This document shows positions 17,114 to 18,141 of a stretch of 32,690 nt of DNA, one piece after another. Origin of the DNA: Chiloscyllium plagiosum (Eukaryota); the NCBI RefSeq assembly GCF_004010195.1, contig NC_057755.1, positions 4,296,255-4,328,944 on the forward strand, in the 5' to 3' direction. The notes under the pieces were generated by a model. It was not told the origin of the DNA and ran no database searches. It worked only from the letters and a program-made list of their open reading frames with translations. The position numbers and the translations under genes were made by a program. The first letter of the stretch is position 1, and every line of letters starts with the position of its first letter.

Positions 17114-17207
17114 ATGAGAACTGTCCTGTTCTTTATTCTTGTGGCCTTGGTGATGGTGCAGCCGGGCACTGCTGATGAAGTCATGAAACAACATCTTTCC
17201 TTTAACC
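17114..17207 (+). CDS. Beta-defensin-like precursor, exon 1 (signal peptide and short pro-segment)
   Basis: ATG at 17114 gives MRTVLFFILVALVMVQPGTADEVMKQHLSFN: basic residue, hydrophobic core, P-G-T-A cleavage region. One extra nt follows, then a consensus donor GTGAGT at 17208 (phase 1). Confidence 0.85.
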
Positions 17208-18007
17208 GTGAGTCCATTTATCCTCAATGTTCACAAACATTCAGAAGGGCAGACTGAAGTCACTCATCTCTCTGAAGACTAAGTTGTAACCCTTAAGCTG
17301 ACAAGAGACTTTAGCTTTAGCTGACTGGAGACTAAAATCAATCAGTTAATATGTCCGATAAGTGTTCGTGGGATGCGAAGCCAAGATTTATTGTCCATTC
17401 CTTATTGCCCAGAAGGCAATGGGAATGAATCTGGAGTCACGTGTAAATCAGAGCAGGTAATGACAATAGGTTTTCTTCTCTTAAGAACATTAATGAAGTA
17501 GCTCTTCCCTTGTTTCACCTTGAATCCCTCCCCTGGATAATTAACAGCGTTTTCATACTTGACATCAGATTATTTGGATATAATTAATATTTAGTCATCT
17601 TCCTCGATGAGATTCATAGACAGCTCTTCAAAACATGAGCTTGATGGACTTGGATGTCCGTCCAGTGATAATCCCACCAGTCTACCATGCATTCCTTGTG
17701 CAGTTGGTGAATTATGGCAGACATTTCCCATGAGTGAACAATCCACTTCAGTTCTGAAACACTTCATGTTTATTTACCTTTTGGAATAAATAAGCAGCAG
17801 GCTATAACCTTTAAGGCCATTCCATGTCAATGGATGTCACGGCATTGCTGCAATCGACAGGTGCCCCTCCCTTGGATTGGACTGTGTTCGTTATGGACAG
17901 ATTTCTCATCAGTGACGGCAAGAAATATGTCTTTAAAGTTCGGGGGTCTCACGGGCTGAGGTGAAATCTTGGCAGGAATTAATGAACTTCTCGTCTTTGC
18001 TTTCCAG

Positions 18008-18141
18008 CTCGATCCCGGAAATGTATATTTGAGGGAGGGGTGTGCAGATTCGAAACATGTCTCGATGATGAATTTGAGCGTGGTTGGGGTTGCAGACAAA
18101 ATTACGTTTGCTGCAGAAAAATCAGTGGACCGCAAGGTTAA
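18008..18141 (+). CDS. Beta-defensin-like precursor, exon 2 (six-cysteine mature peptide)
   Basis: Polypyrimidine tract and ttccAG acceptor at 18006-18007. The phase-1 reading is (P)RSRKCIFEGGVCRFETCLDDEFERGWGCRQNYVCCRKISGPQG*, i.e. C-x6-C-x4-C-x10-C-x5-CC with GxC at C2 and a basic pair after CC. The spliced precursor is 75 aa. Confidence 0.88.

Follow-up and report, generated by a model that had tools for sequence, protein, structure and literature searches.

An intact-looking two-exon beta-defensin-type gene on a small shark scaffold and the large, partly decayed family around it

Beta-defensins range from teleosts to mammals, as stated in a 2020 review (PMC7203481), and the closest known relatives of the gene described here are the tetrapod beta-defensins (Pfam families PF00711 and PF13841), among them hBD-1 (2nlq), hBD-2 (1fd3), hBD-6 (2lwl), mallard AvBD3 (7lzl) and the beta-defensins of lizards. 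Reptile defensin clusters are linked to CTSB and XKR6, that is, to a cathepsin-B-type locus and XK-related genes, and lizards are described as having 63 genes on one chromosome, with a cysteine spacing that falls within C-x(6-7)-C-x(3-5)-C-x(8-14)-C-x(5-7)-CC (PMC12278569). The genes of birds evolve by tandem birth and death, with a conserved signal peptide and a mature peptide under selection (PMC3161384). Teleost beta-defensin genes comprise three exons, between which their six cysteines are divided 4+2 (PMC11541337); there are 1 to 7 of them per genome, and in olive flounder the precursors are 67 to 77 residues long with a short propiece (PMC8231796). A flounder beta-defensin with an anionic mature peptide is bacteriostatic and chemotactic for leukocytes (PMC8698591). 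A phase-1 intron before the cysteine-rich region is a mark common to beta-defensins and the big defensins of invertebrates (PMC7203481).

For cartilaginous fishes, we found no published beta-defensin among the papers listed by searches of a mainly open-access literature, and an earlier description or annotation may exist. A term search of four articles (PMC10707392, PMC10620051, PMC12474679, PMC12734493) likewise returned none, and the shark antimicrobial molecules are listed without a defensin in the relevant part of a 2019 review of fish immunity (PMC6795676).

The DNA analysed here, referred to as the window, is a stretch of 32,690 nucleotides on a 12.8-Mb scaffold (C46). The original prediction, made from the letters alone, placed a two-exon beta-defensin-like gene here in a probable shark genome. 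Scripted joining of the exons bore out the gene to the base, giving 75 residues with no internal stop, and the source is supported by an XK-related exon of the assembly, whose identity among the 120 matches listed is 99% to 100% with shark XKR7, 95% to 98% with ray and skate and 91% with chimaera, no bony vertebrate sequence exceeding 87%.

All parts of the gene lie on the plus strand. A TATA-like element with a putative promoter role (17056..17063) is found about 55 nt 5' of the ATG; similar forms precede the intact paralogs L017, L018, L020 and L021, and the element is altered in stop-bearing copies of exon 1. Coding exon 1 (17114..17207, 94 nt) begins with the ATG at 17114, encodes a signal peptide and a short propiece, and ends at a GTGAGT donor, the sole GTRAG donor across 17114-17400. 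Residues 1-20 (17114..17173) form the predicted signal peptide, whose hydrophobic core reaches a hydropathy of 3.7 in 7-residue windows and is conserved across an alignment of 16 exon-1 sequences, and the small residues at -3 and -1 suggest cleavage after Ala20. The GT-AG intron (17208..18007, 800 nt) follows 31 codons plus 1 base and is thus in phase 1, as had been proposed; its 3' end is a pyrimidine tract with CAG at 18007, and homologous introns in six paralogs measure 772 to 815 nt. Coding exon 2 (18008..18141, 134 nt) holds all six cysteines and the stop. The downstream AATAAA that completed the earlier model is present at 18228..18233, 86 nt after the stop, and four of six close paralogs have ATTAAA at +85/86; of the remaining two, one could be read for 74 nt only. 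The gene model is thereby confirmed as that of an intact-looking gene for a putatively secreted peptide of beta-defensin type; expression and microbe killing are putative.

The six-cysteine core (18022..18114) reads C-x6-C-x4-C-x10-C-x5-CC, with cysteines at residues 37, 44, 49, 60, 66 and 67 (spacing 6-4-10-5-0) and conserved Gly, Arg and Glu residues. The motif itself was called correctly from the sequence, with the third gap being 10 residues rather than about 9, and it falls within the published lizard range. A six-frame search of the window finds it a single time, and none of 100 first-order Markov resamplings of the window contains it, by which a chance origin was rejected. An explanation from the opposite strand was also rejected, the overlapping minus-strand ORF (17827-18399) having no Pfam match. 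The original prediction took the gene to be the only apparently undisrupted complete one in the window; of the 15 other ORFs scanned there, fourteen were without a Pfam match, and the remaining one had a sub-threshold match: a short env-like remnant at 25776-26123 (plus strand; TLV_coat, E 0.0035, below the cut-off), which probably belongs to an endogenous retroviral element now decayed.

Between the signal peptide and the first cysteine lie about 16 mostly polar residues, and no convertase site conserved among the paralogs was found. The net charge is -3 for the core from the first to the sixth cysteine, +2 for the exon-2 peptide and +1 (pI 7.8) for the predicted secreted 55-mer, and it ranges from -2 to +5 for exon 2 across the intact family members. 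The predicted mature peptide lacks the clear positive charge of classic cationic beta-defensins, and its acidic core makes target-specific action likelier than cationic membrane lysis. The C-terminal residue is Gly (18136-18138), as in 6 of 7 close subfamily members, and could be a signal for C-terminal amidation.

Membership in the beta-defensins is supported through the six-cysteine spacing, the phase-1 intron, Pfam matches within the family and the predicted fold. The peptide itself has no Pfam match (E up to 10), but relatives of it do: of 44 non-redundant exon-2 peptides of the genome, PF00711 (Defensin_beta) matches 20, with a best E of 8.9e-6, and PF13841 matches 14, both counted at E up to 0.1. 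Over the whole genome the two models gave 0 matches at E up to 0.1 although intact genes exist, and they are therefore blind here. Compared with solved structures, the single peptide had helianthamide as its sole sequence match (E 0.62), and a profile of the 44 peptides returned seven chains at E 0.15-0.8, six of them beta-defensins and one a platypus defensin-like peptide. The family profile brings all six cysteines into register with hBD-3.

Structure prediction, which had been suggested as a check, points to the three-stranded beta-defensin fold. With the 44-sequence alignment, AlphaFold gave a pLDDT of 75.7 and a pTM of 0.46, with strands at 10-13, 21-24 and 33-37 of the exon-2 peptide; an alignment of 13 sequences gave a pLDDT of only 50.9. 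All Foldseek matches of the predicted model from rank 1 to 18 are human, avian, bovine or mouse beta-defensins, with 24% to 36% identity in the top rows, TM scores that reach 0.64 when normalised by query and 0.74 by target, and a best E of 0.078. An independent VIA search of 48,161 chains placed hBD-6, hBD-2 and AvBD3 on top (Z 3.9-4.2), and the top three ESM Atlas clusters are beta-defensins at 0.79-0.81, which we treat as a lead only. The fold and profile scores are each modest, as expected for 43 residues, yet for the modelled peptide they all point one way. By analogy with known beta-defensins, the disulfides would pair 1-5, 2-4 and 3-6.

The peptide is absent from the protein collections searched. 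Neither the single exon-2 peptide against entries of 23-76 aa (no candidate) nor the 44-sequence alignment against entries of 18-76 aa (none at E up to 0.1) found a relative in searches that are weak for such short peptides. A 13-sequence profile run against 1.84 billion representatives, the only search that reached longer annotated precursors, returned none at E up to 0.001.

A search of the genome for a cluster, also suggested by the original prediction, found paralogs, several on the same scaffold and many on others. The exon-2 query matched 15 places, 10 of them on C46 at 3.84-4.40 Mb. The gene lies in a duplicated unit (17109..22281) with an inverted copy just upstream of the window at 94% and 90% identity, and the nearest paralog, about 24 kb off, sits inside this inverted copy. 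Four further queries from divergent paralogs gave 53, 77, 45 and 81 matches. Together the five queries mark 201 places, 91 of them on scaffolds C1-C60, with C49 (25), C8 (17) and C46 (12) in the lead; the 201 places are not a gene count, with four queries run to E 10, chance matches and dead copies included, only the best-scoring candidates taken and some small contigs possibly alleles. From the examined loci came 39 exon-1 candidates, a set that omits 13 exon-1 loci that were broken or without exon 2, and 21 of these splice to an intact six-cysteine exon, the other 18 being broken or ambiguous. The intact genes are mostly on scaffolds of 8-14 Mb, with 16 of 21 on C39, C45, C46, C49 and C50. 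The spacing 6-4-10-5-0 is found in 21 of 21 even though the search pattern permitted other spacings, and the first exon has 30-31 codons in every one. A protein tree of the intact genes was set aside because of its weak branch support (2 of 18 inner branches well supported) and long-branch joins. The gene is a recent duplicate, and the family to which it belongs is large, partly decayed and spread over many scaffolds; its repertoire approaches that of lizards in size, and most of the interest lies there.

The decay of the family takes several forms. A common stop at codon 26 and loss of the GT donor are seen in 11 of 19 examined exon-1 loci. Dead exon-1 copies are dispersed (L023-L034, on C16, C37, C45 and small contigs), and the stop common to these 11 is one in-frame TAA; the shared TAA together with the lost donor indicates that a pseudogene was amplified after its death. 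One defensin-like exon 2 is dispersed as well, in about 50 copies at 80% or higher protein identity (81 matches, best-scoring candidates), among them L137-L142 and L157-L162, on C6, C7, C8, C11, C23, C32, C38 and small contigs. The exon is embedded in a unit of 2.2-2.4 kb next to complex satellite-like repeats, and different copies of the unit are about 88% identical. In four copies the 12 kb upstream yielded no exon 1. The exon looks like an orphan that a repeat-associated duplicon has spread, yet all six cysteines are still intact in five of the six copies that were read. The LPFRC-type exons on C46 likewise showed no exon 1 in the sequence stretches examined. The flank at 5211 of an assembly gap in the window (4711-5210) aligns to L129/L130 at a point some 400 bp ahead of a six-cysteine exon of LPFRC type, so that a further minus-strand defensin exon is probably concealed by the gap.

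Further features of the family and its surroundings were seen in passing. Loci L042, L045, L059 and L064 (C49 and a small contig) have long C-terminal tails after the CC, with precursors of 88-112 residues that are unusual here, and further clusters of defensin-like exons, many with stops, lie on C48 (6.8-8.2 Mb), C47, C39, C43 and C16 (71-72.4 Mb). Positions 1-4710 and 8785-13548 of the window form an inverted segmental duplication (88-93% identical), which is also present around other defensin loci on C46. Two related repeats with an 87-bp period (19225-19406 and 26584-26742) lie within a 550-bp direct repeat of 73% identity and are possibly the terminal repeats of an element between them.

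Compared with the known systems, the shark gene has in common with the tetrapod beta-defensins the signal exon, the phase-1 intron, six cysteines in one exon and the predicted three-strand fold, and the family shows the bird pattern of a conserved signal peptide with a selected mature peptide. It is unlike them in its spacing, which is fixed across the intact genes, in its acidic core, in its low identity and in that this member has no Pfam match. The shark clusters are spread over several small scaffolds, whereas those of tetrapods lie on one chromosome. The tetrapod cluster is marked by CTSB, XKR6, MTMR9 and XPO1. The sole locus of PF08127, the cathepsin-B-type propeptide, lies on C9, which carries 0 of the 201 places. 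XK-related matches, taken as one group, occur on C3, C4, C12, C15, C20 and C27 and on none of C45-C50. Judged by these two kinds of match there is no sign of a CTSB/XKR6-type linkage, and a divergent linked defensin could escape the search. The teleost beta-defensins (zebrafish BD1-3, sea bass, seabream defb2 and the anionic flounder fBD) are alike in six cysteines and fold, but their three-exon 4+2 layout is not seen in the shark, which has two coding exons with all six cysteines in one, and at least 16 intact genes on large scaffolds compared with 1 to 7 genes. The invertebrate big defensins resemble the peptide in the fold of their C-terminal domain (6qbk is present in both the profile and the fold lists) and in the phase-1 intron; the hydrophobic N-terminal domain by which they are defined in the cited section of a review (PMC7203481) is absent from the shark peptide.

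The pattern of divergence suggests that the subfamily has diversified adaptively. Across seven genes, 0 of 6 cysteine columns are variable, compared with 25 of 29 other columns (p=1e-4). Two more distant paralogs differ from the gene by 32% and 38% in exon 2, by 8% and 15% in the intron and by 6% and 12% in exon 1, and the excess in exon 2 over the intron is strong in both (34/105 vs 66/783, p=2.5e-10; 40/105 vs 111/730, p=2e-7), while in the four closest paralogs it is absent or weak (p=0.76, 0.85, 0.026 and 0.042). A codon model written for this analysis and using the intron tree gave an omega of 2.75 for 8 genes (p=0.009 vs omega=1), and for exon 2 M2a was favoured over M1a (LRT 29.9, p=3e-7), with a like result from ten genes; of the eight, two come from small contigs and are possibly alleles, and L036, present in an exon-2 alignment, was left out of the codon test on account of a stop at its sixth cysteine. 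The residues flagged are 33, 38, 40, 55-58 and 65, and of these the hypervariable residues 55-58 ahead of the fourth cysteine (18076..18087, plus strand) fall in the positively selected class of this model at NEB > 0.95. By outgroup comparison, exon 2 has 30 changes in this gene's lineage and 5 in its sister, against 43 and 23 in the introns. Synonymous sites in exon 2 are raised as well (pS up to 0.28 vs 0.08-0.15 for the intron), so that the selection signal may be exaggerated by gene conversion or by mutations of several bases at once. The nearest twin differs by 5 replacement and 0 silent changes in the coding sequence and by 2.9% in the intron, a comparison that cannot tell function from drift. 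Positive selection would therefore speak for the subfamily and not for this copy.

Four sequencing runs bear on the locus. Reads of X1, X2 and X4, which belong to one study, cover the intron, and these runs therefore behave as DNA. They hold close copies of the gene, with single contigs that span 18021-18154 free of gaps and with 2-3 differing letters; all listed indels in these copies are non-coding, and one X2 contig skips most of exon 2. The single-cell polyA run X5, sampled at about 2 in 100, is uninformative on expression: its 3 partial reads all fall in an intronic repeat, and none on the exons or their junction.

We favour the reading, at a probability of roughly 60%, that this is a working beta-defensin host-defence gene, a recent duplicate in a tandem cluster on a small shark scaffold, whose peptide acts on a specific target with residues 55-58 as its specificity surface. 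With the gene anatomy, family context, predicted fold and selection pattern as given above, its steps of action may be drawn from known beta-defensin biology. The transcript would be spliced at 17207/18008, and the signal peptide would route the 75-residue precursor into the secretory pathway and be cut off after Ala20. Three disulfides (1-5, 2-4 and 3-6) would hold the three-stranded sheet, the short propiece would possibly be trimmed, and the peptide would be released at an epithelial surface or from leukocytes. Its target could be a ligand on the surface of microbes or a chemotactic receptor of the host, with the fast-changing segment 55-58 as the likely point of specificity; the anionic flounder peptide, bacteriostatic and chemotactic in spite of its charge, speaks in favour of this reading. 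The family as a whole would gain and lose genes by birth and death, and selection would diversify the mature peptide.

The gene could instead be a recently silenced duplicate, with a frame kept intact by its youth and a selection signal inherited from working ancestors. We regard this as unlikely, though it is the strongest of the rivals: the intron of the nearest paralog differs by only 2.9%, that paralog shows neither AATAAA nor ATTAAA over the 250 nt that follow its stop, the window copy has Trp58 where the twin and X1, X2 and X4 have Arg, and dead copies abound, both among the exon-1 loci with the codon-26 stop (11 of 19) and among the 39 candidates (18 broken or ambiguous). A silenced copy is harder to reconcile with a TATA-like element, start, splice sites, six cysteines, stop and polyadenylation signal that are all intact, and with a burst of exon-2 change that falls on the lineage to this very copy.

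The other two rivals accept a working gene and change its task. Mammalian epididymal beta-defensins and the ovodefensins of birds and reptiles have roles on sperm or in the protection of egg or embryo, and by analogy the shark peptide may be a reproductive-tract or egg-case defensin whose fast evolution reflects reproductive or local microbial selection. Its low net charge and rapid adaptive change would suit such a role, as would the 14 of 44 members that match PF13841, a family rich in epididymal defensins. PF00711 nevertheless matches more members (20 of 44), and ordinary avian defensins are also fast-evolving and of low charge (PMC3161384). Ovodefensins are expressed in the oviduct (PMC12278569), and a grouper beta-defensin is found mainly in pituitary and testis (PMC3004800), the latter again in favour of this proposal, which we hold to be slightly less probable than silencing. 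It is very improbable that the fold has been repurposed as an enzyme inhibitor or ion-channel ligand in the manner of helianthamide, the platypus defensin-like peptides or crotamine. Families of this kind typically show diversifying selection, helianthamide is the single peptide's only sequence match among solved structures (E 0.62), and all three kinds of molecule appear in the fold lists; they rank, however, below true beta-defensins (Foldseek ranks 24, 26 and 37; VIA Z 2.6-3.1 vs 4.2), the family profiles return mostly vertebrate beta-defensins, and nothing ties the locus to a venom tissue.

The gene itself belongs to a well-known class as an ordinary member with a putative function, and the point of interest is the apparently undescribed large repertoire of the shark. 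We advance, as a tentative proposal to which we give rather less than even odds, that sharks hold one of the largest beta-defensin repertoires among vertebrates: an independent radiation with its own fixed spacing, scattered over a number of the smallest chromosomes and apart from the cathepsin-B locus of tetrapods, in which weakly charged subfamilies diversify adaptively as target-specific recognition peptides. If this is true, the two-exon beta-defensin gene dates to the ancestor of jawed vertebrates, the third exon and small repertoire of teleosts are derived, and a library of host-defence peptides adapted to salt and urea is opened. An intact and adaptively evolving shark family would extend the beta-defensins to cartilaginous fish, would polarise the difference in gene structure between teleosts (three exons) and tetrapods (two), and would show that big defensin expansions are not confined to amniotes.
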